Shown: in pieces, positions 3,750-50,170 of the stretch
Layout of the letters: each line of letters starts with the position of its first letter
How positions within the stretch are numbered: position 1 is the first letter of the stretch
Source of the DNA: Candidatus Omnitrophota bacterium
GTDB lineage: Bacteria; Omnitrophota; Omnitrophia; Omnitrophales; Aquincolibacteriaceae
NCBI GenBank assembly: GCA_043821445.1
Contig: JBDRCT010000034.1
Location: 2,210 to 66,209, forward strand
DNA: 64,000 nucleotides
Direction: 5' to 3'
Program-made: the position numbers and the translations under genes
The notes under the pieces: generated by a model
Told to the model about the DNA's origin: nothing
The model's input: only the letters and a program-made list of their open reading frames with translations
Databases searched by the model: none

Positions 3750-4996
3750 GGAATATCCCCCTTTTGGGTTATAGCAGAAACCTTCGAGACTAAAGAACCT
3801 TTATGAAGCCGGGTCCGTATCACATCCCCTTCCGAAATCTGCCGGACATTTTTGAGGATGTCGCCTTTTTCATTAAAACTCACGGAATAACCGCGCTCAA
3901 GGATCGCGAGAGGATTGAGTGCATTCAACCGGCCCATGATACCCTGAAAGACCTGGCTCTTGGAACCCATAAAGTTTGACACGCAACCTTCTATCCGCCG
4001 GCCCAGATCATCCACCCGTCCGGTAAATTGGTCCAGGAGATACCGCGGCTGCCGGAACGCCGCGCTTGAAGCAAGACCCGAAAGCCGCTCCTGATACCGC
4101 TCACAGATCCCGGTCACTATGAGATCCATTCTCTCCTTACGTTCGTGCAAACGGTCTTCAAGTTCGAAACGGCTTGAGACGATGAGCTCCGCGGCGGCTG
4201 AAGGCGTCGGGGCCCGAAGATCCGCTACAAGATCGCAGATCGTCCAATCGCTCTCATGTCCCACCGCAGAAATAACGGGGATCCTCGACCCAAAGATCGC
4301 ACGGGCGACAGGCTCCTCGTTAAAGGCCCAAAGATCTTCGAGACTTCCGCCGCCCCGTCCCACGATCAGGACATCGGCCTCTGCTTGCTCGTTCATCATT
4401 CCGACAGCAGCCGCGATCTCCGCGGCCGCGCCTTCTCCCTGCACTTTGACAGGGCAGAGCAGAACATGGGTCCCGCAGAACCGGCGGTTCACCACGTTCA
4501 AAATATCATGGATCGCGGCCCCGGTCGGCGAGGTGATCACGCCCACGATCTTCGGAAACTTCGGGACGGGCCGCTTCCGCTCTTCGGCGAACAGACCCTC
4601 CTTAGCCAATTTCTCTTTTAATTGCTGGAACGCAAGCTGGAGCGCCCCGATGCCCTGCGGTTCTACGCGTTCGATATAAAGCTGGTACTGCCCGCGCGCT
4701 TCGTAAATGGAAACACGGCAGAACGCGAGGACCTTGAGTCCGTCCTTGAGCTCGAACCGGAGTCCGCGCTGATATTGGCTGAAGAAAGCCGCCTGGATCT
4801 GTGCCGATTCGTCTTTGAGCGTCAGATAGATATGCCCGGAGCTGTGATGCTTGAAGTTCGAGATCTCCCCTTCCACCCAGACCGCGGAAATCCGGGATTC
4901 CAGGAGCAGGCGGCTCTGCCGGTTCAGCTGGCTGACCGTATAAATTTTTCTTTCCTTGCTATTCAAATCGAGATCGTGCATTTCTGCGGCTTTCAT
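3746..4996 (-). CDS. xseA: Exodeoxyribonuclease VII large subunit
   Basis: 416 aa; OB-fold N-terminus plus catalytic core (VWVEGEISNF, GRGGGSLEDLWAFNEE); GGAG ribosome-binding site 8 nt upstream of the ATG. Confidence 0.9.
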   Translation of the reverse strand: MKAAEMHDLDLNSKERKIYTVSQLNRQSRLLLESRISAVWVEGEISNFKHHSSGHIYLTLKDESAQIQAAFFSQYQRGLRFELKDGLKVLAFCRVSIYEARGQYQLYIERVEPQGIGALQLAFQQLKEKLAKEGLFAEERKRPVPKFPKIVGVITSPTGAAIHDILNVVNRRFCGTHVLLCPVKVQGEGAAAEIAAAVGMMNEQAEADVLIVGRGGGSLEDLWAFNEEPVARAIFGSRIPVISAVGHESDWTICDLVADLRAPTPSAAAELIVSSRFELEDRLHERKERMDLIVTGICERYQERLSGLASSAAFRQPRYLLDQFTGRVDDLGRRIEGCVSNFMGSKSQVFQGIMGRLNALNPLAILERGYSVSFNEKGDILKNVRQISEGDVIRTRLHKGSLVSKVSAITQKGDIP

Positions 4997-8125: not shown

Positions 8126-8199
8126 GCCCCCATAGCTCAATTGGATAGAGCATCTCCTTCCTAAGGAGAGGGTTGCATGTTCGATTCATGCTGGGGGCA
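8126..8199 (+). tRNA. tRNA-Arg (anticodon CCT)
   Basis: Cloverleaf folded by hand: acceptor GCCCCCA/TGGGGGC, D-stem GCTC/GAGC, anticodon stem TCTCC/GGAGA with loop TTCCTAA (U33, CCT, A37), T-stem GCATG/CATGC with TTCGATT loop, discriminator A. Followed by TTTTTT. Confidence 0.85.
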
Positions 8200-10008: not shown

Positions 10009-12693
10009 CTATTTCTTCTGACGCAATACCGCTTGAGCTGCCGCGAGCCTCGCGATCGGAACGCGATAGGGCGAGCAACTGACATAATTCATCCCCACCC
10101 TGTTGCAGAGAGCGATCGAACTTGGATCGCCGCCATGTTCGCCGCAAATGCCGATCTTCAAACCCTTCTTCGTTTTACGGCCTTTTTCCACGGCAAGTTG
10201 AATCAAATATCCGACACCTTCTTCGTCAATCGACTGGAACACGTCTTTCTCGTAAATGCCCTGATCAAGATAGGCCCCCATAAAGGAACTGGAATCGTCG
10301 CGAGAAAAACCGAGTGTCATCTGCGTAAGGTCGTTCGTGCCGAATGAGAAAAATTCGGCGACCTCCGCAATGCGGTCCGCCGTGAGTGCCGCTCGAGGCA
10401 CTTCGATCATGGTCCCGATCATATATTCGACTTTGGTCCCCTTTTCCGTGAAAACCTTGTTGATGGTCTCGATGGAAAGGTCCCTCAGGATCTCGAGTTC
10501 CCTCTTGGTCCCGACGAGCGGGATCATGATCTCGGGAACGATCTTCATGCCTTTTTTCTTCAAGTTGCAAGCCGCCTCAATGATGGCACGGACCTGCATA
10601 GCATAGATCTCGGGGTACGTGATCCCGAGACGACAGCCTCGATGGCCGAGCATCGGGTTGAATTCATGAAGCGCTTCGACCTTCTTCTTAACGATCTCGA
10701 CGGATACCTTCATGACGTCCGCCATTTCCTGCTGGTTGGCGGCTTCCTGAGGAAGGAATTCGTGAAGCGGTGGGTCCAAAAGACGGATCGTCACGGGAAA
10801 ACCTTTCATCGCCTCGAAGATCCTTTCAAAGTCCCCGCGCTGCATCGGCAGAAGTTTCGCCAGAGCCTTCTCACGGCCGACTTTATCGTCCGCGAGGATC
10901 ATCTCACGGACCGCGATGATGCGATCGCCTTCAAAGAACATGTGCTCCGTACGGCAAAGTCCGATCCCTTCGGCGCCAAAACGGCGGGCCACTTCCGCAT
11001 CGTGGGGGGTATCCCCATTGGTGCGAACTTTGAGCTTACGGGTCTCATCGGCCCACTTCATCAGGGTCGCAAAATCACCGGAAAGTCTGGATTCGATGGT
11101 ACTGAGTTTGCCGAGATAGACTTGACCGAGACTGCCGTCGAGAGAAATAAACTCTCCTTCTTGCACGACCACTTTTCCGGCCGTGAACTGACGGGCCTTA
11201 TAATCGATCTGGATGTCCGTGACACCGGCCACACAGCATTTCCCCATTCCGCGAGCCACGACAGCCGCGTGCGAGGTCATGCCACCGCGCGCCGTTAGGA
11301 TACCTTTCGCGACATGCATGCCGCCAATATCCTCCGGCGAGGTCTCGATACGAACCAGGATCACCACCTCGCCCTTTTTTGCCCAAGCTTCGGCGTCCTC
11401 GGCCGTAAACACCACTTTACCGGTCGCGGCGCCCGGAGACGCGGGCAGTCCCTTAGCGATGACCTCTTTTTTCTGTTTCGGATCAAACGTCGGATGAAGC
11501 AACTGATCCAGCTGTTTGGGATCTATTCTCAAAAGAGCCTGACCCCGGGTCAGCGCTTTTTCTTTGACAAGTTCAACCGCAACACGAACGGCCGCCGCGG
11601 CAGTCCGTTTGCCGTTCCGGGTCTGAAGGATATAGAGCTTCCCTTCCTGAATCGTGAATTCAATGTCCTGCATGTCTTTGTAATGTTTTTCAAGACGCAG
11701 ACGGAGAGAATTAAGCTGTTTGTAAACTGCCGGCCATTTCTGGGCAAGCACTTCGATCGGCTCCGGCGTGCGGATACCGGCCACGACATCTTCTCCTTGG
11801 GCATTGATCAAATATTCGCCGTAGAATTTGTTCTCACCGGTCGAAGGGTTGCGCGTGAAGCAAACACCGGTTCCGGAAGTCTCTCCCATATTGCCGAACA
11901 CCATGGCCTGAATGTTCACGGCTGTGCCAAGAAGACCGCGGATCTCATTGATCTGGCGGTACTTGATCGCGCGGGGATTGTTCCATGAATTGAAGACCGC
12001 GTTTGTGGCTTTGACAAGCTGCTCGAACGGATCTTGAGGGAATTCTTCTTTCGTATGGTCTAAGTAGATCTTCTTGTACTGGCGGACCACATCCTTCAAA
12101 TCATTGGCATTGAGCTCAGTGTCGGATTTTGCACCGACCTGCTGCTTTTTCTTTTCAAGCACATGCTCAAAATCATCATGCGGTACCTCCATCACAACGT
12201 CCCCGAACATTTGGATGAAACGGCGATAGGAATCCCACGCAAAACGCTCATTCTCAGTCTTCACAATCAACCCCTGCACCACCTCCGAGTTAAGCCCGAG
12301 ATTGAGCACGGTGTCCATCATGCCAGGCATGGAAGCCGCGGCGCCCGAGCGAATGGAAACGAGGAGGGGATTATTCCGGTTACCGAGCTTGAGGCCCATG
12401 GCTTTTTCGAGTTTGGCGACATTCTCGCGGACTTGCTCCTCAAGACCCGCAGGCCATTTCTTGCCGTTTTTATTATAAAGATCGCATGTTTCGGTCGTGA
12501 TCGTAAAACCGGCCGGAACGGGAATGCCGATATTCGTCATTTCGGCGAGGTTCGCGCCTTTGCCGCCCAGAAGATCTTTCATCTTGGCGTCCCCTTCAGC
12601 CTTGCCATTGCCAAAAAAATAAACGTATTTCGAGCACTTGGATTTGGATTTAGACTTGGATTTCGAGGATCTCCTGCATGTTGCGGTACTCAT
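10009..12693 (-). CDS. ppdK: Pyruvate, phosphate dikinase
   Basis: 894 aa; ATP-grasp N-terminus KYVYFFGNGKAEG; phospho-histidine region GGMTSHAAVVARGMG; PEP-utilising C-terminal domain. It has an unusual N-terminal (SK)5 extension. Confidence 0.95.
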   Translation of the reverse strand: MSTATCRRSSKSKSKSKSKCSKYVYFFGNGKAEGDAKMKDLLGGKGANLAEMTNIGIPVPAGFTITTETCDLYNKNGKKWPAGLEEQVRENVAKLEKAMGLKLGNRNNPLLVSIRSGAAASMPGMMDTVLNLGLNSEVVQGLIVKTENERFAWDSYRRFIQMFGDVVMEVPHDDFEHVLEKKKQQVGAKSDTELNANDLKDVVRQYKKIYLDHTKEEFPQDPFEQLVKATNAVFNSWNNPRAIKYRQINEIRGLLGTAVNIQAMVFGNMGETSGTGVCFTRNPSTGENKFYGEYLINAQGEDVVAGIRTPEPIEVLAQKWPAVYKQLNSLRLRLEKHYKDMQDIEFTIQEGKLYILQTRNGKRTAAAAVRVAVELVKEKALTRGQALLRIDPKQLDQLLHPTFDPKQKKEVIAKGLPASPGAATGKVVFTAEDAEAWAKKGEVVILVRIETSPEDIGGMHVAKGILTARGGMTSHAAVVARGMGKCCVAGVTDIQIDYKARQFTAGKVVVQEGEFISLDGSLGQVYLGKLSTIESRLSGDFATLMKWADETRKLKVRTNGDTPHDAEVARRFGAEGIGLCRTEHMFFEGDRIIAVREMILADDKVGREKALAKLLPMQRGDFERIFEAMKGFPVTIRLLDPPLHEFLPQEAANQQEMADVMKVSVEIVKKKVEALHEFNPMLGHRGCRLGITYPEIYAMQVRAIIEAACNLKKKGMKIVPEIMIPLVGTKRELEILRDLSIETINKVFTEKGTKVEYMIGTMIEVPRAALTADRIAEVAEFFSFGTNDLTQMTLGFSRDDSSSFMGAYLDQGIYEKDVFQSIDEEGVGYLIQLAVEKGRKTKKGLKIGICGEHGGDPSSIALCNRVGMNYVSCSPYRVPIARLAAAQAVLRQKK

Positions 12694-12784
12694 AATTGCT
12701 CCTTTTTAATTCTTGTTGATTTTTGATGGATTACGATTAAAAAATAACCCTCCGAAGGACCTTCAGGGGTCTTAAAAGAGGTTT

Positions 12785-12831
12785 GGTCCCGATACATATC
12801 AATTTCAACGAAGTTGAAATTGGGGCCCTCC
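12785..12831. repeat. REP-like 47-bp palindromic element, family 2 copy 1
   Basis: ggtcccgatacatatcaatttcaacgaagttgaaattggggccctcc. A perfect 10-bp inverted repeat CAATTTCAAC/GTTGAAATTG with conserved flanks. It lies 92 nt upstream of the ppdK start. Confidence 0.65.
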
Positions 12832-12886
12832 ATGTCAATATCCTGGAAATGAAGCTTCAGACAAGGACGGAAGAGCGCGGATTATA

Positions 12887-14992
12887 TCACTCTTCGTCGA
12901 TTCTGGAAAGTGCCGAAAGATCGGCGATCTTTGCCGTATAAAGACGATTGATCTTTGCGACAAGCGCCATCCGATTCTCACGCAAAACCGCGTCCTCCGC
13001 ATTCACCAGAACATGGTCAAAGAAATCGTCCAGAGGCCCTGCAAAAAGATCCGCAAAAAGCCGCGTCGCTTTTTCATATGCCTCCGTTTCGAGAAACCCG
13101 ATAACGTCTTTTGCTCTCGTGTAAAATAATTCAAAAAGCCTCTTCTCCCCGGCCTCGATCAAAAGTCCCTCTTTCGGTTCCCCGGGCATTTTGCCATAAC
13201 CTTTCAATATGTTCGCCGTTCGCTGGACCACCTTGGCCGCCTTGATCAGGATTTTCTGATCCATTCCGGTCAGGACATCAAACCTTTTAAACGCGCCCGA
13301 GATATCCTCAAAGGAAGATCGCATGACCGCCTGAAGAACCTCAAAAGGCCGCGTGCCGGGTTTGACGCTCAATTCAAACGACACACGCTCCTGAAGAAAT
13401 TTTAAAAATCTCGGCTTCAAGTCTTCTTTCTCGGTCAATTTGTTGCCGTACCATTTCATATTCGTCTCGAGAACCTGCTCCAGCGAAAAGGAGATCCCAA
13501 ATGCCCGAACAAGCTTTACCACAATGCCACCGGCCCGGCGCAACGCAAAGGGATCCTGACTTCCCGTGGGTTCAATCCCTGAGCCCAGGGCCCCGATCAA
13601 AAGGTCGAGGCGATCCATGACCCCGAAGAGTGCTCCGAGGAGGCTCATGGATTTTTTGACCTTCACGTGATCTTCCGTCAGGTTCTTGGGCAGGTATTGA
13701 GTACCGATCGCTAAGGCCACTTCGTTTTTTTCTCCGGCCTCAAGGGCATATTCCCGGCCCACGATCCCTTGAAGATCCGGCATTTCATAAACCAAATGGG
13801 TCGCAAGATCGATCTTGGAAAGCGCGGCAACGCGCGCGAGGTCCCGCGCAAGCTCTTTTTGCCCTACCGCTACGGCGAACTCCGCGGCCATCTTTTCAAG
13901 TCTCTTGGTCTTGTCGAGGACCGAGCCAAGCTTGCCAAGGTAAACGAGTTCGGCGAGTTTCGGCTTTTTCTTTTCGAAGGTTTCGCGCGTGTCCATTTCA
14001 TAAAAATAACGGGCGTCCTTGAGCCGCGAGTCCAGAACATTTTCATAATCCGAACGGATCTTGGAAAGGCCCTTGTGCTTGCCGTTCATCACGGCTACAA
14101 ACCGGTTCTTCATCTTTCCTTTGGCGTCACAACAGGCAAAAACTTTCTGGTTCTTTTTCATGCAACTTGCGAGCACTTCCGCGGGAAGCTCGAGATATTC
14201 CTGCGAGAAGGTCCCCTCCAAAAAGAACGGCTCTTCCACAAGCTGGGCGTTCACGTGCGCCAATTCTTTGTCACTTTGTTTTTGTCCGAAGCGGTTTTTG
14301 AGGGCCCCGCGAATCAAGGCCTCACGCGTTCCGATCGGCAGATAAACATGTTTCTTTTTCAAAAGCGCGACATAAGCTTTCCAATCGGCTTTCGGGATCG
14401 TGAAACTTTGAGGCGAAAGAAAACGGTGGCCAAAGCTTTTATTGCCGGACTTTACATCCGCAAGCACAAGCGGCACCTTTTTGGTGTTCATCAGAACGAC
14501 CAGCCACCGGATGGGACGAGGGAAACGGAACCCCGACGCTTCCCAGCGCATGAGTTTAGGAAAGGAAAGTGAAGCAAGAAGCCCCTTGATCAGATCCGGA
14601 AGAAGGGTCGAAACGGCCCCGCCCTTTTCTTTTTTCCTCAGGAGGATGAACTTCCCCTTGGGGGTGTCCCGGATCTTGATATCTTTTTCGGTAGCCTGTT
14701 TGCTTTTGAGGAAACCCTGCAACACCATCGTGGATTTCCCCTGAGCATCATAGCATTTCTCATGGGAAGGACCCGATATCTCGAGCTCCCGGTCAGGCTG
14801 CACCGCGGCAATACCTTGGACAAAAAGCGCGATGCGGCGCGGCGTTGCTTCGACTTTCACATCCTCGAAAGCGATGCGTTCATCCACAAGCTTTTGATGC
14901 GTTCTCACGACCAACTCGTCATAAATAACATCCAAACTTCCGACGGGCAGCTCTTCAACACCGATCTCGATCAATAAATTAGGCACGGTCAT
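12887..14992 (-). CDS. glyS: Glycine--tRNA ligase beta subunit
   Basis: 701 aa; GlyS N-terminus ([11 protein letters not shown]) and length; immediately downstream of glyQ with a 4-nt overlap. Confidence 0.9.
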
Positions 14993-16304: not shown

Positions 16305-16510
16305 GCTCCGGAACCACTGAAGGAACAGTCCTGGCTTTCGTTTTCTTTCGATCTACGACCGTCAGGACCGTCCCTTCGTTTACCCCGTAGCACCGTTAAA
16401 CATGTCCCACTCCTTATGGAAACTCTTCGAGAACATTCCCCAGGTTGATCCGTTCCCATACGCCTTATTTAACGGTTGCTTACGGGGCAAGCGGGTCTCA
16501 AGCTCCGGTA

Positions 16511-18291: not shown

Positions 18292-21246
18292 TCATCCGGC
18301 TCCCATTCCGAGAACCTTGCGGAGAAATTGTCCTGTATAGGAGCCCGGGACTCCGGCGACCTCTTCCGGAGAGCCACAAGCGACGATCCTCCCGCCATCC
18401 TTTCCGCCATCGGGCCCCAGATCAATCACATAGTCTGCCATCTTGATGACATCCAGATTGTGCTCGATCACCACGACCGTGTTACCTTGGTTCCGAAGAT
18501 CAAAGAGCGCCTTCAAAAGATGCTGGATATCCCCGAAGTGAAGCCCTGTCGTGGGTTCGTCCAAAAGATAAAGTGTTTTTCCCGTAGCTTTCTTAATAAG
18601 CTCGGAGGCGATCTTAATGCGCTGAGCTTCCCCGCCTGAAAGCGTGGTCGACGATTGTCCGAGTTTTAGATAACCCAGCCCGACCGTTTCAAGAACTTCC
18701 AATCGCTCGCGAATCATGGAAAGCCTCGCAAAAAAACCTATCGCCTCCCGGACTGAAAGGTCCAGCACTTCCGCAATATTTTTTCCTTGGTAACGGACCT
18801 CGAGCGTTGGCTCGTTGTACCGCTTGCCACGGCAGGATTCACAAACCACAAAAAGATCCGGCATAAAGCTCATCTCGAGTTTTTCGGATCCTGCTCCACG
18901 GCAATTTTCACACCGCCCGCCTTTAAGATTAAAACTGAAACGCGACTGGGAATAGCGGCGGAGTTTCGAAAGTTCCATGTCACTGTAAAGTTTGCGAATG
19001 AACCCGAAAATATCCGTATAGGTCGCGGGATTGGAGCGCGGCGTACGTCCGATCGGCGCCTGGTCGATCTCAATGATCTTATCAATATGTTCTGCACCCT
19101 CGAGCGTCCCGAACCGGCCTACTTTGTACTCTGTTTTAAAGATCCGGTTGTGAAGTTCCTTGTAGAGAATATCGTGAACAAGTGTACTTTTACCCGAACC
19201 TGAAACGCCGGTCACGCAGATAAAAAGCCCGAGCGGAAAAGTCACATCGATATTTTTCAGATTATGCTCGCAGCAGCTTTTTACGATAAGTTCCGGGACC
19301 GTACGAGCGCCTTTGCGGTCCTTGGGCACCTCGATTGAAAGCTCGCCGGAAAGATATTGGAGCGTCAGCGATTGGGGGCATTCCTTCATCTCGGCAAGCT
19401 TGCCTTGGGCCACGATCTCCCCGCCCTGAATACCCGCCCCCGGTCCGAGATCGATCACGTGCTCGGCCCTCCGGATCGTTTCCTCGTCGTGTTCAACGAC
19501 AAGTACCGTATTCTTAAGATCGCGAAGTTTTTCAAGTGAATCCAACAACTTTCCATTATCACGGGGATGAAGACCGATGCTCGGCTCATCCAGCACATAG
19601 AGCACACCGGTCAGTCCGAGTCCGATCTGCGCCGCAAGCCGGATGCGCTGGAGTTCCCCTCCGGCCAAAGTTGCGACCGTGCGATCAAGCGTCAGATACC
19701 CGAGCCCGATATCGAGAAGAAATGAAAGCCGTTCACGAACTTCCCGGAGAATGGGCTCTGCGATCACTTCCTGCGCGCCTTGAAAAAACAGATCCCGAAA
19801 GAACGGCACCGTCTCTTCGACAGATAAAGCCGTAACCTCGGTAATATTTTTCCCTTCGATCAGAACGCTGAGGCTTTCTTGGCGGAGCCGCTTGCCCGCA
19901 CATTCCGGACAGATCTCCTCACGTAGGAATTTCCGGACCTTCGCACGCACTTCCTCGGAATTCGTTTCATGGAAAAGTCGCTCCCATTCTTCCACAAGCC
20001 CGGCAATGTCCCCATCCCCGAGGAAAAACACTTCTTTGGCTTCTTCTGGCCAATCTCGATACGGCGTATCCCATTCAAAGTTATATTTCTCCGTCAGATC
20101 ATGCAAAAGATCTTCGAAAAAATACTTATTGAATGAGAAAAAAACGTCTTTGTTGAGTGCGTTCATAAGCGGTTTATGGGGCGCCAAGATCACACCCTGG
20201 GCAAAGATCTGCGAAAGTTTCCCGAGCCCTTTGCATTTCGGGCAGGCTCCGTAAGGGCTGTTGAATGAGAACATGTTGGGCGCGAGATCCGGCAGGCTGA
20301 TCTGGCATTTGGCGCAGGTTTTGGTGGTGGAAAAAAAATGAAGGACCCCCTCCCCGTTATCCTCTTTTTCCAGGATCGCAATATGTCCTTTAGTGAGATC
20401 CAACGCGCAAACGAAGGAATTCCTGAAACGTTTGTCCTGGCATCTATCCTGACTTTTATTTTCTCTCTCATTATGGTTGTCAGGATTGCCCCAATTTCCA
20501 TCATGTGGAAATTGAACAGTATTGGGACTATTTTCTTCTGACAAAGGGTTGCCAGGGCTGGTCCAATTAACCCTTGAATCTTTTGAAGGAGAATTGGGCC
20601 TGTCCTCACCCTTTAAAAGCGTCAGCTCATCGATCACGATCTCAATATCGTGGCGCACGGACTTCCGGAGCTTCATATCCTGTTTGATGAGCCTCACGCT
20701 CCCATCGATGCGCGCCCGGTCAAAACCTTTTTTAAGTGAATCCTGGAAAAGCTTCTGGAATTCTCCCTTGCGCCCTCGCGCAAGCGGTGCCAAGACCTGC
20801 ACTTCACGTCCCGCAAAACGCTCGAGAAGGTCCTTAAAAAGCTCCTCACGGGACTGGCTTCGAAGGATCTCATGACACGAGGGACAGTAAGGGATGCCGA
20901 CCTTGGCGAAAAGGAGCCTCAGATAATCATAGATCTCGGTAACGGTTGCGACCGTAGAGCGCGGATTATGCGTAACGGAACGTTGTTCGATCGCGATCGC
21001 AGGAGAAAGCCCGGAGATATGGTCCACATCCGGCTTCTTGAGCTTTTCGAGAAATTGCTTGGCGTAAGAGGAAAGACTTTCGAGATAGCGACGCTGGCCT
21101 TCGGCGTAGATCGTATCGAACGCGAGCGAGGATTTCCCGGAACCGGAGAGACCGGTTATGACCGTGATTTTGTTGCGAGGGATCTTAAGCGATAAGTTCT
21201 TGAGATTGTGTTCTCGTGCCCCGCGGACCTCGATGAATTCATCCAT
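18292..21246 (-). CDS. uvrA: Excinuclease ABC subunit A
   Basis: Two ABC ATPase modules ([20 protein letters not shown]) and zinc-finger cysteines. Start set at [17 protein letters not shown] (ATG 21246), because a conserved non-coding repeat (21270-21316) lies inside the longer ORF start at 21330. It contains an AT-rich insertion of about 65 aa. Confidence 0.93.
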
Positions 21247-21269
21247 GCACGGAATTCCTCCGGCCGGCC

Positions 21270-21316
21270 CGTCCCCATACCTGTCAATTTCAACTTCGTT
21301 GAAATGGGGGCGGTCC
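21270..21316. repeat. REP-like 47-bp palindromic element, family 2 copy 2
   Basis: cgtccccatacctgtcaatttcaacttcgttgaaatgggggcggtcc. Same arms as copy 1 with the 3-nt loop inverted (ttc vs gaa). It lies 24 nt upstream of the uvrA ATG. Confidence 0.65.
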
Positions 21317-21356
21317 TGACTGCCATTCATAAAAAGAAAACAAGAGTCAGGACCGC

Positions 21357-26196: not shown

Positions 26197-26994
26197 CTAG
26201 TTAAGTTTAGCAACGTCGAAGTTGAATTGGGGGTCTAATTGTTTCAGTTCCAGGACCAAATGAAGGATCGTATTCTTTAGTTCTGAGGATTTTGTCGAAA
26301 GCCATCTCTGATAAGCTTCAAGGAACTGCTCCATCTTGATGTTCCGCAGGTGGTCTTTTTCATAGCCGCTCATCTCCATAAGGAAATGCTGGAAGGCCTG
26401 CTCCCTGAAGCACTCGATAAATTTGAAATAATCTTCTTTGACGTCGGCAAGGATATGTCTGTAGACGTCGAACTGACTCGCGATTTTGCTGAGCACTTCC
26501 CCTACCCCTGTTTTTTTGTCATAAACTCCGGCATGGAAGCGCGCAGCCTGGTTGTAATAGAGGATTGCGGACAAGCGTTCTTCGCTTTTTTCATTCGGGG
26601 CGTCTTTTTTGAGCGGAAACCGCTTGGCCAATGGAGGATCGGGATTAAAGATCGTGGATTGAACGAGCAAATGGTCGGCATTGACCTTAAAAATAAAATA
26701 CCGGAGCATCGGATCGTCAGTCTCCCGGACCCATTCAAAAATCTCGTGAGTGTTGGTCGAAAGAAAGGGATCCGCCATGTCGTGGTATTCCGGAAGCGAG
26801 ACGGCGAAGAGCAGATGCGCAAGATAGATATTCACATCCTCATCGAAAGAAAGCGCCCGCGTCAAGCCACGCGCTTGGTCCTTGGCTTTCAAAATAGATT
26901 CCAAGAGAAAATAGATGGCCGACTCGCGGTCCTCGCTTGAGAGACTGAAATACAGGTAAGGTGCTTTCGAATCCAGCTCTTTCTTTTCGCTCAT
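26197..26994 (-). CDS. Hypothetical protein (orphan in a low-GC region)
   Basis: Start at MSEKKELDSK with strong ribosome-binding site AAAGGAGGGG about 9 nt upstream; about 45% GC; a 220-bp AT-rich region (26995-27220) lies upstream; no recognisable domain. Confidence 0.45.
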   Translation of the reverse strand: MSEKKELDSKAPYLYFSLSSEDRESAIYFLLESILKAKDQARGLTRALSFDEDVNIYLAHLLFAVSLPEYHDMADPFLSTNTHEIFEWVRETDDPMLRYFIFKVNADHLLVQSTIFNPDPPLAKRFPLKKDAPNEKSEERLSAILYYNQAARFHAGVYDKKTGVGEVLSKIASQFDVYRHILADVKEDYFKFIECFREQAFQHFLMEMSGYEKDHLRNIKMEQFLEAYQRWLSTKSSELKNTILHLVLELKQLDPQFNFDVAKLN

Positions 26995-39247: not shown

Positions 39248-39482
39248 GGCTTTTCACCCTCGTCCAAGTCTTCATGATTTTTATGGATGGCGACTTGGAC
39301 AGCTTTGATTTTCAATTGATTTTAAAAATCGATAATCAAGCGATATTAAAAGCACAGCACAATTCCAAGATTATTGTATACCTAATATCGATGGAAAACC
39401 AAAAAACTTAAGATGTCAGAAATAGTGTTCGAAACATGGCTTATTGAAAAACAGCCCGGGGTCGGCTCATTAAGTTGTGGAC

Positions 39483-39768: not shown

Positions 39769-39886
39769 CCCCTTTTTGATTTAAAATGATGTAAATAGGA
39801 AATCCTAGCACTGCGTTCTATTGATTTTAAGAGTTTGCAGTACTAGCACCGCCCAAACTTTATATTCTTTTCCGAAATGGTAGTTT

Positions 39887-39933
39887 GGACGGCCCCAATT
39901 TCAGCTTCGCTGAAATTGATTGGCATTGGGACC
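39887..39933. repeat. REP-like 47-bp palindromic element, family 2 copy 3 (opposite orientation)
   Basis: ggacggccccaatttcagcttcgctgaaattgattggcattgggacc. It matches the reverse complement of copies 1 and 2, with an A>G / T>C change that preserves the stem. Confidence 0.65.
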
Positions 39934-39964
39934 GTTAATCCATGAAAGCGAATAGAAAACGGTG

Positions 39965-41542
39965 CTAGAAAACCTCGTGGTCCACATCCGGAAAAATATT
40001 GTCCTTCCCTTCCAGTTCCTTGAGCCAGCCCTCATCTAAACGGTTATTCATGAGTTCCTCATAAATCCTCGTGAAATTGAGGAGATGCTCCTTTGTACGT
40101 TTCACGGCATACGGAACCACCGTGCCCGTATGCAGGATAAAAGCCCAGTCACTTGATTGCGCGAGAAAGAGCTCACGTGCAGCCTGTTTGAGCGCCCGGC
40201 CGGCAACTCCGTTCTGCCCCCTGAATTTCTGGGCCATCTCGCTCATGCGCAGTGACGCCTTGTGAAGATGGCGATAGATCCAGTCGTTGGCTCCGGAAAG
40301 CCAAGTCTCGCTGTACCCCTTCCAACCCCAGCTTGAAAAGCACGGCGTGGAAACCTGATTCACAGGATACTCTTTGAAATAATCTGAGGGCGCGATCAAA
40401 CGGAACGTCTTCTGATCAAAGGCGGTCTTACGCACAAAAAAGTTCAGGAACTCCGGGCCTTCATACCACCAATGTCCGTAGAGCTCCGCGTCATAAGGAG
40501 CTACAATGAGGGGCTTCCGGCCCATAAAATCATAAAGATATTCTGCTTGTTTCTCGCGATTAAACATAAAATTTGAGGCATGATTTGCGGCCTTTTGTAT
40601 GGCCCAACCGCGAACGTACGGCTGTTTTTCCTCCGTACTGCCCGTAATGCGGTGATATTTGATGCCGGTGTTAACACGCAGACCGTCGGGAGAAATATAG
40701 GGACGAATATAATCGAAATCCAGTTCAAAACCGATATCGCGATAAAATTCGCGGTAATCCGGATCACCCGGATATCCTTCAATGGCCGACCAGACCTGCT
40801 TGGAAGATTCCACGTCACGGCCGAACGCAGCCACCCCGCTCGGGCAAAAGATCGGTGCGAAAACTCCGTATTTCGGGCGCGGTGAGGCGTGAAGAATGCC
40901 ATGCGTATCGGTCAAAAAGTAGCGGATGCCTTGCTCTTTTAAGTATTTATCCACTCCCGGGTAATAGCCGCATTCGGGAAGCCAAATGCCGATCGGACGA
41001 CGACCGAGCACTTTTTCATAAAGCTCCGTCGCGGTCTTGATCTGACCGCGGACGGTCCCTTCGTTACGGTTGATCAAAGGAAGAAATCCATGGGTGGCTG
41101 CGCAGGTAAGGATTTCAAGATGCCCGTGATCCTGGAATTTCCGGAAAGCCTGCGTAAGGTCCTTGTGATAACGGTTCAAAAACGTGTCCTTCGCGCGCGT
41201 GAATTCCCAGTAATAATGAAGTGCTGTTTCGTGGAACTCGGACTGGAAACGCGTACGATCGATCTCTTTATTGGCCAGCTCGATCATCTTGTCCAAATGC
41301 CGTAGATAGCGATCCTGTAAAAGCTCATCCTGCAACATGGACATCAGCGAAGGCGTCAGGGACATCGTAAGCCGCCAAGGAACATGGTCCCGCTCCAAAC
41401 CTTCGAACATATGGATGAGAGGAATGTAGGTCTCAGTGATGGCTTCGTAAAGCCAGGCTTCTTCTAAGAAATATTCGTGTTCAGGATGGCGGATGAACGG
41501 CAGATGCGCGTGAAGCACTATGGAAAGAAAACCTTTTTCCAT
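39965..41542 (-). CDS. Glycoside hydrolase family 57 protein, probable 1,4-alpha-glucan branching enzyme
   Basis: 525 aa; GH57 N-terminus (FLSIVLHAHLPFIRHPEHEYFLEEAWLYEAITETYIPL) and catalytic region (IGIWLPECGY); clustered with glgC. Confidence 0.85.
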   Translation of the reverse strand: MEKGFLSIVLHAHLPFIRHPEHEYFLEEAWLYEAITETYIPLIHMFEGLERDHVPWRLTMSLTPSLMSMLQDELLQDRYLRHLDKMIELANKEIDRTRFQSEFHETALHYYWEFTRAKDTFLNRYHKDLTQAFRKFQDHGHLEILTCAATHGFLPLINRNEGTVRGQIKTATELYEKVLGRRPIGIWLPECGYYPGVDKYLKEQGIRYFLTDTHGILHASPRPKYGVFAPIFCPSGVAAFGRDVESSKQVWSAIEGYPGDPDYREFYRDIGFELDFDYIRPYISPDGLRVNTGIKYHRITGSTEEKQPYVRGWAIQKAANHASNFMFNREKQAEYLYDFMGRKPLIVAPYDAELYGHWWYEGPEFLNFFVRKTAFDQKTFRLIAPSDYFKEYPVNQVSTPCFSSWGWKGYSETWLSGANDWIYRHLHKASLRMSEMAQKFRGQNGVAGRALKQAARELFLAQSSDWAFILHTGTVVPYAVKRTKEHLLNFTRIYEELMNNRLDEGWLKELEGKDNIFPDVDHEVF

Positions 41543-48679: not shown

Positions 48680-50095
48680 TTAGAGGTTCGAGAGCTGGAG
48701 ACTGGAAACAGAAATTCTGCTCTGGCGAATACAATCCGTGATGCCAAATCCGTGGAATCCATTTCCCGTAAAAAAAAGACCGGGATATTGAAAACCTTTT
48801 TTTTCGATCCGCTTCACACGATCAAAATGTCCCGTCTCATATTGGGGCAACGCGCTAGGATAGCGTTCAATATCGATAAGCAGCGGCTTGGCATGAACGC
48901 CAAAAAAATCACTCATAAAAGTCTGCATCCTTTGTTTGACTAGTGCGTCATTCTCATGAAAGACCTTGGGAAGCATTGTTTCGGACAGAAATGCGCGCAT
49001 CAAAAGGTGTTTTCCATCCGAGCTCTTACCGAGCCATTTAAAACTTGAAAAAGGACACCGCTCACCCCCCATGGGCACCAGGAATCCGAAATCCGGACCT
49101 TGAGCCAGTACATCCCCGGCCTTGTAAATAAGATTCACCGCCGCGATCGAATCGTATCGTACAGTTGAAAGTGCCAGGGAAAGTTCGGGAGCGGTTGTAA
49201 AAAGCAATTTCGAAGCATCGCAAGCGTTCATGGCAAAACCCAAGATGTCTGCGCACAATAGGGTGCCATCCTCCATAAAAATTTCCCAACCCGCGTTGTA
49301 AGCACACTGCCGGACAGGCGAGGACCTTCGCAACTCACACCTCCCTAATTCCCGCACAAGCGCGTGAACTAGTCCTTCAAGGCCCTGCCTCAAAGTAAGA
49401 AATTCTGCCGGAACCTTTTCTTTTCTCCAGCTTGTCTTGTTCAGAAAAGATCCGGCAAGACTTCCATGAGTCTTCTCGACTTGCCGCAGCCTTGGGAATA
49501 GAGCTTCCAGACTCAACCGCTCGGGATTCATCATGCAAACGCCTTGCGCCAATGGTTTTACGACTTCTTGGTAGAAGCCTTGCCCAAGACGCCGGCGAAT
49601 AAAACTCGCGAGACTTTCATCTCCATCTTCCTTCCGACGCGGAATGAACGGCTCTCCAAGCATCCGGCATTTCCCAAAAAAACTCAACCGAGGGCTATTA
49701 AGAAAACGAAAGACATCGGAAAAGGATCCAGAAAGACCTGGAATAGGATAAAGCTGTTTATTTTTCAGGCCAAAAAAACGCCGGAAGCATGGGGATGCCT
49801 CGATCACATCTTCCTGAAGACCCAGCTTGCGACAAAGGTCCAGGGTGTCATTTTGACCGGCATAGAAAGCATCCGCTCCGGCTTCCATGTGAAGGCTTTC
49901 GTGTGTCAGCGTACGAAGCACCCCACCCAAACGGTTTGAGGCTTCGAGTACGGTGATCCTAAGGGGAAAATGCTCTTCTGCGGCTCTCCGGGAAAGGAAA
50001 AAAGCGGAGCTAAGGCCTGAAATACCACCCCCGATGATCACCGCGTGGCGTCCAAGTCTTGGATTTCTTTTTTGAACGTTGACTTGAACTGTCAT
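48680..50095 (-). CDS. FAD-dependent oxidoreductase, protoporphyrinogen-oxidase / phytoene-desaturase (HemY/CrtI)-like
   Basis: 471 aa; dinucleotide motif VIIGGGISGLSSAF...VLEASNRLGGV; C-terminus FTGNGFHGFGITDCI typical of the amine-oxidase superfamily. Confidence 0.7.
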   Translation of the reverse strand: MTVQVNVQKRNPRLGRHAVIIGGGISGLSSAFFLSRRAAEEHFPLRITVLEASNRLGGVLRTLTHESLHMEAGADAFYAGQNDTLDLCRKLGLQEDVIEASPCFRRFFGLKNKQLYPIPGLSGSFSDVFRFLNSPRLSFFGKCRMLGEPFIPRRKEDGDESLASFIRRRLGQGFYQEVVKPLAQGVCMMNPERLSLEALFPRLRQVEKTHGSLAGSFLNKTSWRKEKVPAEFLTLRQGLEGLVHALVRELGRCELRRSSPVRQCAYNAGWEIFMEDGTLLCADILGFAMNACDASKLLFTTAPELSLALSTVRYDSIAAVNLIYKAGDVLAQGPDFGFLVPMGGERCPFSSFKWLGKSSDGKHLLMRAFLSETMLPKVFHENDALVKQRMQTFMSDFFGVHAKPLLIDIERYPSALPQYETGHFDRVKRIEKKGFQYPGLFFTGNGFHGFGITDCIRQSRISVSSLQLSNL

Positions 50096-50170
50096 GATTT
50101 CAAATTATTTTTTATTATTGAGAATCATGGCGTTCACTCATGGGATCCAGCAATAGGAATGGATAGGCTT

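Follow-up and report, generated by a model that had tools for sequence, protein, structure and literature searches.

Insertion sequences of the IS200/IS605 group make no target duplications and have a guide 5′ of each hairpin; in one of them, IS608, the short target is recognised via a few element bases at the hairpin foot, non-canonical pairs included. Repetitive extragenic palindromes (REPs), the other natural point of comparison for a short hairpin-forming repeat, are imperfect palindromes of 20-40 nt with a conserved tetranucleotide head (GTAG in enterobacteria and pseudomonads), typically arranged as inverted doublets and extragenic. Here we analyse a repeat found in a 64-kb stretch of a Candidatus Omnitrophota genome (contig JBDRCT010000034.1, positions 2,210 to 66,209; hereafter the window), which a sequence-only reading had described as a REP-like family of 47-nt palindromes with three full copies and a partial one. 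On balance we favour the explanation that the repeat is a small, non-coding, non-autonomous mobile DNA of Omnitrophota, with a self-specified target and hairpin signals read in single-stranded DNA (ssDNA). That it is a mobile DNA element we hold with confidence, and it probably directs the choice of its own 3-nt target.

Alignment of four window copies and their flanks in one orientation ("B", GGAnnGCCCCAATTTC...GGGAC) revealed about 40 extra conserved nt 5′ of the palindrome, holding a second hairpin; the 47-nt palindrome is therefore one module of a conserved unit of about 84-90 nt and not the unit itself. In an alignment of 84 copies the core runs in the order TCC, helix 1, Y-x′-G, CCC, a 10-bp palindrome (hairpin 2), a 9-nt bulge ATAAGnATT and GGG-A. 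The unit comprises this 81-nt core and a C-x-R trinucleotide at each end, and its insertion adds 84 nt. Helix 1 is a 9-bp stem, free in sequence but complementary, with a T-rich loop of about 25-35 nt (TTTnATTTTCTTTTC..AAnGG), and hairpin 2 reads CAATTTCnnn / nnnGAAATTG around a 3-nt pyrimidine loop. Units of 84 nt are the commonest (39 of 84 copies), and those of 83 nt come next (26 of 84). The terminal inverted repeat (TIR) is only TCC...GGA (3 nt) in most copies and about 8 nt in one subfamily. A search of the window with a covariance model (CM) found four intact copies, one interrupted and three degenerate; the four full copies scored 78-92 bits (E 1e-15 to 1e-18):

12784..12870, minus strand: copy 1 (core 12787-12867, 81 nt; CM 77.8 bits, E 1.5e-15), which includes 12785-12831.
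21269..21355, minus strand: copy 2 (core 21272-21352, CGG on both sides; CM 80.1 bits), which includes 21270-21316.
39849..39934, plus strand: copy 3 (core 39852-39931, 80 nt, CCG on both sides; CM 92.3 bits), which includes 39887-39933.
20444..20530, plus strand: copy 4 (core 20447-20527, CTA on both sides, palindrome 20483-20528; CM 87.9 bits).

The three palindromes of the sequence-only reading (12785-12831, 21270-21316 and 39887-39933) were confirmed at those coordinates; its count was right for these three full copies and had overlooked the fourth, at 20444-20530, and three degenerate ones. The motif CAATTTCARC-N3-GYTGAAAT, with up to 3 mismatches, lies at 4 loci and matches on both strands, giving 8 matches where 0.32 are expected (none of 100 shuffles reached 8). 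A repeat finder paired copy 4 with copies 1 and 3 (I3, D19) and extended the likeness well past 47 nt (I1, 69 nt).

The single compensatory pair on which the selection argument had been based, an A>G change on one arm of copy 3 matched by T>C on the other, is real, and it is the tip of a very large covariation signal. Copy 4 brings two further stem changes (A-T>C-G and C-G>T-G). RNAalifold recovered helix 1 and the palindrome unprompted from the 84-copy alignment. In the same copies 95.3% of cells in the specified structure were paired, compared with 82.5% in shuffles, and the covariation score was 0.379 compared with 0.153 in shuffles (none of 500 reached it), falling to 0.07 or less once the partners were slid by 1-3 columns. 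Double-sided changes occurred in all nine helix 1 pairs and in the top three palindrome pairs, the lower palindrome being fixed by the search pattern in this set; on 115 copies they occurred in 18 of 22 pairs, in an alignment fitted to the CM, which favours structure. The proposal that the hairpin is under selection is borne out by these changes, and the search for further copies and covariation brought up more than 100 further loci; the outcome named beforehand as refuting it, no more copies and no covariation past the one pair, did not occur.

Three other readings of the conserved sequence were considered and set aside. A small-peptide gene (MVV(R/W)(T/I)APIS..KL..IGT, readable in three of the four window copies) would start at a loop ATG that is not kept across the family, being also AGG, AAG or ACG, and its variable codons coincide with the compensatory stem positions; no ORF start is conserved. 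A mobile promoter, TTGAAA-N17-TAnAAT, can be read across hairpin 2 and its flank in some copies; none of the four in the window has it, nor do most of the rest. The anatomy speaks against a palindromic transcription-factor operator, and compensatory changes would go unexplained by a dimeric one.

Direct evidence for mobility came from seven comparisons of filled and empty orthologous sites. Five were clean, with exactly 84 nt added and C-N-R present once before and twice after. Several involve uvrA, the host of copy 4. Close-relative UvrA homologues differ in length by multiples of 28 residues. Site 1 is empty, with EDR|RFRNSF uninterrupted, in P0003, P0004, P0007 and P0009 (928 aa), holds one 28-aa insertion in P0005, P0006 and P0021, and holds 56 aa in the window protein and in P0002 (94% identical). 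At site 2 the element-encoded peptide SPNTDQSQQGCDWGCPDHHFGKEMKN adds 28 aa in P0011, P0016, P0025 and P0037. The DNA for P0006, P0003 and P0011 (loci L104-L106) is in all three cases syntenic with the window. The sites compare as follows:

Upstream of uvrA, 26-nt spacer: empty in L104, L105 and L106 (GAG-CGG-(A/G)CC); filled in the window (GAG-CGG-[81 nt]-CGG-GCC), exactly +84 nt.
uvrA site 1, older copy: empty in L105 and also L106 (GGA-CAG-GCG); filled and uninterrupted in L104 (GGA-CAG-[81 nt]-CAG-GCG).
uvrA site 1, nested copy: empty in L104 (AAAA-TAA-ATGCC); filled in the window (AAAA-TAG-[81 nt]-TAG-ATGCC), in the helix-1 loop of the older copy.
uvrA site 2: empty in the window and L105 (AAGGA-ATG-CCCCCAAT); filled in L106 (AAGGA-CAG-[81 nt]-CTG-TCCCAAG).
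Helicase-nuclease gene, site A: empty in L076 (TGGA-CAG-TCG); filled in L032 (CAG-[81 nt]-CAG) and L097 (CGG-[81 nt]-CGG).
Helicase-nuclease gene, site B, about 100 codons upstream of A: empty in L032 and L097; filled in L076 with its own copy.
Upstream of a Y1_Tnp gene: empty in L107; filled in L080 and L108.

Three of the intragenic events in uvrA and two in the helicase-nuclease gene are in frame. Because most units are 84 nt (28 codons) long and often free of stops, in-frame 28-aa insertions can survive in tolerant protein loops. In the window, copy 4 lies inside the uvrA coding sequence, in frame and antisense to the gene, where it interrupts the helix-1 loop of an older copy; the two nested units together add 168 nt, or 56 aa. 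The older copy, reassembled from 20432-20443, 20531-20602 and one CTA, gives an 81-nt core, and its remains give a weak CM match at 20554-20617 (12.7 bits), its uninterrupted counterpart in L104 scoring 41.8 bits. The gene and the two parts are:

18292..21246, minus strand: uvrA, 984 aa, identical to P0001 (from a Candidatus Omnitrophota metagenome-assembled genome, MAG), with two nested units at site 1.
20432..20443, plus strand: left part of the older, decayed copy, TTG (formerly CTG) and the helix 1 5′ arm TCCTGGCAT, split off by copy 4.
20531..20602, plus strand: right part of the same copy, with the remainder of the loop, the 3′ arm, a degenerate hairpin 2 (GGTCCAATTAACCC..GAATTGGGC) and the right CTG.

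The trinucleotide on either side of the core is not constant, and it is coupled to the element. In most of the 84 aligned copies the left and right C-x-R are the same (CTA in 27, CTG in 10, CCG in 7, CAG in 4 and CGG in 3), and the internal Y-x′ between the two hairpins goes with them as TT with CTA, CT with CTG, CA with CAG, CG with CCG and CC with CGG. The mutual information was 0.90 bits between x on the left and on the right, 0.72 between x and x′, and 0.84 between the right R and Y. This code was obeyed in every clean comparison of filled and empty sites, including the one helicase site where L032 reads CAG/CA/CAG and L097 reads CGG/CC/CGG. Several subtypes coexist in one genome, each with the matching trinucleotide; the window holds CCG, CGG, CTA and CTG types. 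Beyond the 3 nt the flanks are unrelated between copies, and empty sites show that C-x-R pre-exists in the target; the coupling therefore cannot have been inherited with the flank, which argues that the insertion machinery selects targets that match the element. The combinations R/Y and C/G are always Watson-Crick, as is x/x′ where it is G/C; otherwise x/x′ is T·T or A·A. Some targets resemble abutted element ends, GGA-CxR-TCC, and others do not.

We propose that the two hairpins, the conserved bulge and the loops are recognition signals in single-stranded or extruded DNA for an enzyme acting in trans. The inter-hairpin Y-x′-G would pair with C-x-R, lengthening helix 1 at the left end or hairpin 2 at the right one, and would thus be one guide shared by the target or left junction and the right end. 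New copies would enter a matching C-x-R or land on its 3′ side; where that C-x-R is the end of a resident copy, the outcome would be head-to-tail arrays with one shared C-x-R. The closest mechanistic model would be the 'peel and paste' movement of IS200/IS605 (HUH Y1) and of the gene-less PATEs. An HUH/Y1-like enzyme is a possible and tentative assignment, somewhat ahead of a site-specific recombinase or a DDE transposase, the remaining probability going to other classes.

We also consider it unlikely, if conceivable, that the element belongs to an undescribed system, a gene-less two-hairpin strand in which a 3-nt guide sets both its own end and its landing site, and whose enzyme is no recognisable TnpA, RAYT (REP-associated tyrosine transposase) or DDE transposase; such an enzyme could be a host protein or a highly diverged Omnitrophota-specific one. 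In such a system, subtypes that differ in their guide would be directed to different trinucleotides within one cell.

The strand chemistry of the signal can be judged from several sides. Of 102 full copies, 47 share a strand with the downstream gene and 24 oppose it; nine are found within long ORFs, oriented either way. The stems hold 1721 Watson-Crick cells and, as mismatches, 33 G·T, 40 A·C and 47 others; neither strand shows an excess of wobble pairs. Taken singly, copies fold as RNA with unexceptional energies (z-scores -0.3 to -3.0). The hairpin 2 loop is pyrimidine-rich on strand B (41 purines among 252 loop bases) with rare flips such as GAA in copy 2; the inversion between this loop and the TTC of copy 1, noted from the sequence alone, is real, and loop inversion at quasipalindromes is a known signature of DNA template switching. 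Together with the lack of an Rfam match, these orientations, pairing statistics, ordinary folding and loop inversion favour a DNA-level signal rather than an RNA-level one. Of the two alternatives offered for the hairpin at the outset, RNA or ssDNA, the second fits better; copies in both orientations without wobble excess speak against the first.

Several results weigh against a self-targeting ssDNA element. The x/x′ combinations with A or T are not Watson-Crick pairs and can be read as subfamily descent instead of pairing; this mismatch at the middle position may reflect either such descent or non-canonical recognition of the IS608 kind. The two flanks are unequal, CAG left and CTG right, in five of the 84 copies. 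The exact 3-nt repeat is, taken alone, the hallmark of a DDE transposase, and the IS200/IS605 group differs in both of the respects named at the outset, duplications and the place of the guide. Just ahead of start codons, sense-oriented copies outnumber antisense ones 2:1, and some RNA- or promoter-level effect on neighbouring genes is conceivable; many sense copies end 2-42 nt before starts, among them those of mraY (four species), fabH, leuC, atpF, a sigma factor gene and uvrA. Replication-strand bias is a prediction of ssDNA transposition, and a GC-skew test for it was null (mean 0.0075 +/- 0.0074), with coding-strand skew as a confounder.

The search for the mobilising enzyme, which covered 8-kb blocks around the matches and the 64-kb window, also counts against this interpretation. 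All-against-all BLAST of 618 ORFs from element-bearing loci showed no recurrent transposase, only housekeeping clusters, and no autonomous version, with separated halves flanking an ORF, was present among about 76 element-bearing loci. A tblastn search with a Y1_Tnp query found a Y1_Tnp gene (L080:3530-4183) that starts 41 nt from the copy in L080, an arrangement repeated in the orthologue L108. Its product scored 42.9 bits with Pfam PF01797 and 54.9 bits with NCBIfam REP_Tyr_transpos, under the 80-bit cut-off. The clade to which it belongs (L080, L107-L111), however, has xIH instead of HUH and F, Y or L at the position of the catalytic tyrosine; four of the five relatives retrieved have no neighbouring element, and a second homologue is a pseudogene. 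In L080 and L108 the copy stands on one side of the gene only. A PDB sequence search with the protein returned no match. With its degenerate motif and relatives mostly free of the element, the L080 protein was rejected as the mobiliser. The clade, some members of which have long C-terminal extensions, is, judging by these motifs, probably a domesticated, catalytically inactive relative of RAYTs; an HUH enzyme may be encoded elsewhere in the genome.

Among the alternatives, the one that survives best holds that a site-specific recombinase (of the tyrosine, serine or DEDD type) carries the element as a passenger: excised as a circle, the element would recombine through its junction GGGA-CxR-TCC with pseudo-attachment sites that have the 3-nt crossover core and, loosely, the arms in common with it. 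The core is indeed the same on both sides and already in the target, head-to-tail arrays share one core, and the x/x′ code would merely be inherited, with no need for pairing. Some targets mimic the abutted ends, such as GGGGG-CAT-TCC (uvrA site 2), GGA-CAG-TCG (helicase) and CGC-CTG-TCC (uvrA site 1), but others, for example GCAT-CTA-TTTT and TGAG-CGG-GCC, have no arm likeness. To our knowledge, 3 nt is an unusual overlap length among the recombinase classes, and no recombinase gene recurs near the copies in the set of 618 ORFs. We regard this account, and likewise a recombinase acting on a circular form as the enzyme class, as unlikely.

An ordinary miniature inverted-repeat transposable element (MITE) served by a DDE transposase would have its ends TCC...GGA bound by the protein, whether cut-and-paste or copy-paste, a staggered 3-bp cut at a preferred C-N-R and a true target-site duplication, the hairpins being incidental. 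The five clean comparisons with an exact 3-nt duplication fit it well, as do the discrete unit size with its mode of 84 nt and the one subfamily with TIR-like ends (left (T/G)CCCAAG, reverse complement of the right end TCCCAAT); duplications of 3 bp occur in the IS5/PIF-Harbinger, IS3 and IS30 groups. In most copies, however, the inverted repeat is just 3 nt, and the hairpins are internal and local instead of running end to end, yet they show strong stem covariation with a conserved bulge and loops. A target set by a protein would moreover be uniform, whereas coexisting subtypes each match their own trinucleotide, and no DDE transposase recurs among the 618 ORFs. We judge this explanation rather improbable, and a DDE transposase as the enzyme class hardly more promising.

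The label REP-like, and with it a REP/REPIN family kept by a domesticated RAYT, fared less well still. In favour of such a family are the interspersed, hairpin-forming nature of the repeat and its compensatory stem changes, the Y1_Tnp gene that starts 41 nt away from the copy in L080 and in L108, and a few composites with an inverted helix-1 module beyond hairpin 2. The repeat, however, has no GTAG head, occurs singly or head to tail and not, as a rule, in inverted doublets, enters genes, and inserts as a discrete unit with a repeated trinucleotide. The search for a RAYT gene suggested at the outset found beside a copy, within the 8-kb blocks and the window, only the Y1_Tnp gene described above, without the HUH histidine and the catalytic tyrosine, below the NCBIfam cut-off, with four of five relatives lacking the element and no locus with copies on both sides of the gene. 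This makes a REP/RAYT system very improbable.

The weakest alternative, that the element acts primarily as RNA and is conserved by the host as a cis-regulatory leader, an mRNA-stabilising or processing hairpin or a small RNA, draws on the 2:1 sense excess with many copies 2-42 nt before start codons, the pyrimidine-rich loop and the conservation of structure across species, and is scarcely credible given that one third of the copies are antisense to the neighbour, some are intragenic in either orientation, presence or absence differs at the same site between closely related genomes, no conserved distance to gene features was noticed among the copies examined, and there is no G·U excess, Rfam match or exceptional folding of single copies.

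A scan of 185,579 species-representative genomes with the pattern GCCCCNATTTC-N9-GAAATTG matched at least 103 loci, about 76 of those listed having the whole element. These fall in at least 18 species-level assemblies, all named Omnitrophota or Omnitrophica, or unclassified or 'uncultured bacterium', and no whole element was seen in any other named phylum among the matches listed. In the remaining listed loci, from assorted phyla, only the 17 specified bases match, and about 70 chance matches are expected in 1.2e12 positions. Over 644 kb of loci the CM found 115 copies. In loci selected independently of the element the density is about 1 copy per 13 kb, from which we extrapolate to a few hundred copies per genome. 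Most copies are single or lie in head-to-tail tandem arrays of 83-nt period with one shared C-x-R. A search of 2.9 million viral contigs gave zero element matches, no Rfam family overlapped any copy when the whole window was searched (gathering score, and E up to 10), and full-text literature searches, including by sequence motif, gave no paper describing the element, which seems to be an undescribed, phylum-wide repeat of Omnitrophota. One locus from a Solibacteraceae MAG (Acidobacteriota; L051:3762-3807) has a lone perfect palindrome, GGGACAGGCCCCAATTTCTGTTGCGCAGAAATTGGGGCCTGTCCC, followed by a T run; it has GGGACAG and GCCCCAATTTC/GAAATTGGGGC in common with the element, without helix 1 and the bulge, and could be a coincidence, a terminator or a distant relative.

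About six composite forms, palindromic and about 125 nt long, were seen among the element-bearing loci, hairpin 2 being followed by an inverted helix-1 module (L001:1298-1425, L005:1411-1550, L050:7215-7351, L054:4517-4646, L070:1975-2101 and L079:1939-2068); in L072 and L089 two hairpin-2-like modules in tandem replace helix 1. The modules are evidently able to recombine. In four species (L004, L072, L089 and L099) a copy ends 6 nt before the mraY start; the helix-1 sequences and the tops of the palindrome (AAC/GTT or AGC/GCT) differ among these copies, which represent either an old insertion with compensatory changes or a recurrent target.

Site 2 of UvrA, after GKLAEMK, is a hot spot for further insertions (L104:3001-5889; P0005, P0015, P0026 and P0032). 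The site in L104 has a perfect 12-bp palindrome, AAATTTGAGATT CCA AATCTCAAATTT, and that in other species a low-complexity SPPKDGSASGGKS..QISN segment; these extra insertions look like other small repeat families.

In the window, copy 1 lies between the stop of a 701-aa ORF and ppdK (ORF 10009..12693, minus strand), in sense orientation and, as first reported, 92 nt upstream of ppdK; its flanks, read as the reverse complement, are CCG on the left (12868-12870) and CCA on the right (12784-12786). Between copy 1 and ppdK there is a terminator-like hairpin followed by a T run (12752-12766, minus strand), and upstream of copy 1 a sigma-70-like promoter match, TTTCCA-17-TATAAT with a TG extension (12881-12909, minus strand); these are consensus matches only, and copy 1 may lie inside a 5′ leader or between two transcription units. 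Copy 2 occupies what is a 26-nt intergenic spacer, 1 nt past the stop of a 271-aa gene and 22 nt ahead of the uvrA ATG, leaving the uvrA Shine-Dalgarno sequence undamaged; the distance of 24 nt given earlier for its palindrome holds, counted from the true uvrA start at 21246. Copy 2 has no stop in the uvrA frame, and the longest ORF starts at 21330 and reads through it. A public UvrA entry, P0028, has the same kind of N-terminal extension as this window ORF (28 spurious residues, 21247-21330), which points to an annotation artefact caused by the element. Copy 3 lies downstream of and antisense to a 525-aa ORF (39965..41542, minus strand), labelled GH57 in the sequence-only reading. The decayed copies are:

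39256..39349, plus strand: degenerate copy, helix 1 intact (GTCCAAGTC/GACTTGGAC), hairpin 2 decayed (CM 30.1 bits, E 1e-4).
50044..50126, plus strand: degenerate copy, helix 1 recognisable, hairpin 2 mostly gone (CM 21.4 bits, E about 0.01).
16322..16430, plus strand: remnant or solo helix-1 module, an inverted repeat (GTCCTGGC..T-rich loop..GTCAGGAC; CM 18.9 bits).
26213..26240, strand not assigned: possible remnant of a hairpin 2 arm (CGAAGTTG-AATTGGGG), borderline and not detected by the CM.

The spacer orthologous to 16322..16430 has a full copy in L104 and a helix-1-only remnant in L105. The partial arm at 26213-26240, already pointed out from the sequence, aligns at 16 of 17 bases with one gap and scores 27 where the maximum in 30 shuffles is 26, but the CM misses it. 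A tRNA gene (8126-8199, 68.8 bits) is the sole Rfam match in the window at the gathering score.

A separate region of about 125 nt, downstream of an element pair, is nearly invariant in four to five Omnitrophota species (GGCGGGAAGTGTGTTAAGCCACGCTAAGGAGGCCGAG...AACACACTTCCCG; L024:2838-2965, L077:~4690-4815, L020:283-410, L052 on the minus strand, and L013). Its fold consists of a long closing helix around three internal hairpins, and a variant element is inserted in the L013 copy. Absent from the window and without a match in Rfam, whether at the gathering score or up to E 10, the region is a candidate for an unannotated non-coding RNA.

Omnitrophota are uncultured, much studied and known from MAGs only, and repeats of this kind break assemblies and mislead gene callers, examples being UvrA with its spurious N terminus and essential proteins with 'insertions' of 28 and 56 aa. 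The CM can be used to mask or type the element in Omnitrophota genomes. Independent in-frame insertions of 28 codons with empty alleles, in UvrA and the helicase-nuclease, provide ready material for studying the tolerance of proteins to selfish DNA, for which Rickettsia is otherwise the best-known source. If the guide pairing is true, the element would be a minimal, naturally diversified case of nucleic-acid-directed target choice, and its enzyme would be worth finding.

Compared with known systems, the element shares with the ends of IS200/IS605 and with PATEs two different subterminal hairpins in direct order, no real TIRs, conserved extrahelical bases and the suggestion of a single-stranded DNA form, as well as, if the proposed pairing holds, target choice by a few bases of the element itself. 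In contrast to IS200/IS605, its single inter-hairpin trinucleotide would serve both ends, and its motif has 3 nt instead of 4-5 and is the same on both sides, so that insertions look like 3-bp duplications; a trinucleotide on both sides cannot be told apart from a target on the left with an element end of identical sequence on the right. The 8-kb blocks and the window yielded no intact TnpA or TnpB, and there is no similarity of ends and no IS605-related Rfam match. With REP, BIME and REPIN sequences and their RAYTs the element has in common abundant short palindromes, compensatory changes, a probable ssDNA hairpin and modular composites; the 84-copy consensus, however, has no GTAG head and is an 81-nt unit of two different hairpins, inverted doublets are not the rule, and copies also lie inside genes. 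Integron attC sites resemble it as folded-strand recombination sites with free stem sequence, conserved extrahelical bases and a 3-nt core on both sides, but the element lacks RYYYAAC/GTTRRRY cores at the stem base, an arrangement in cassette arrays next to an integrase, and a cargo ORF. We rejected this identity, since AAC/GTT is confined to the variable top of hairpin 2 and the copies are dispersed among housekeeping genes.

MITEs moved by DDE transposases (Correia/NEMIS, ERIC, RUP, Nezha) are likewise small, non-coding, abundant, polymorphic, flanked by a short direct repeat and near gene starts, but have long TIRs that match the parent insertion sequence and a duplication fixed by the protein (TA in Correia), in contrast to the 3-nt termini, internal structure and subtype-dependent repeat of the element. 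The Rickettsia palindromic elements (RPEs) are also palindromic selfish repeats that insert peptides in frame and have filled and empty alleles; they are unrelated in sequence and phylum, and the element is shorter (84 nt versus roughly 100-150 nt), mostly intergenic, and endowed with a defined 3-nt flanking repeat and a target code. Its length of 84 nt (MITEs being under 300 bp), lack of coding capacity, high copy number and presence/absence polymorphism with a short direct repeat are those of a MITE, and its class is that of small, non-autonomous, hairpin-forming mobile repeats of the MITE/PATE-like kind.

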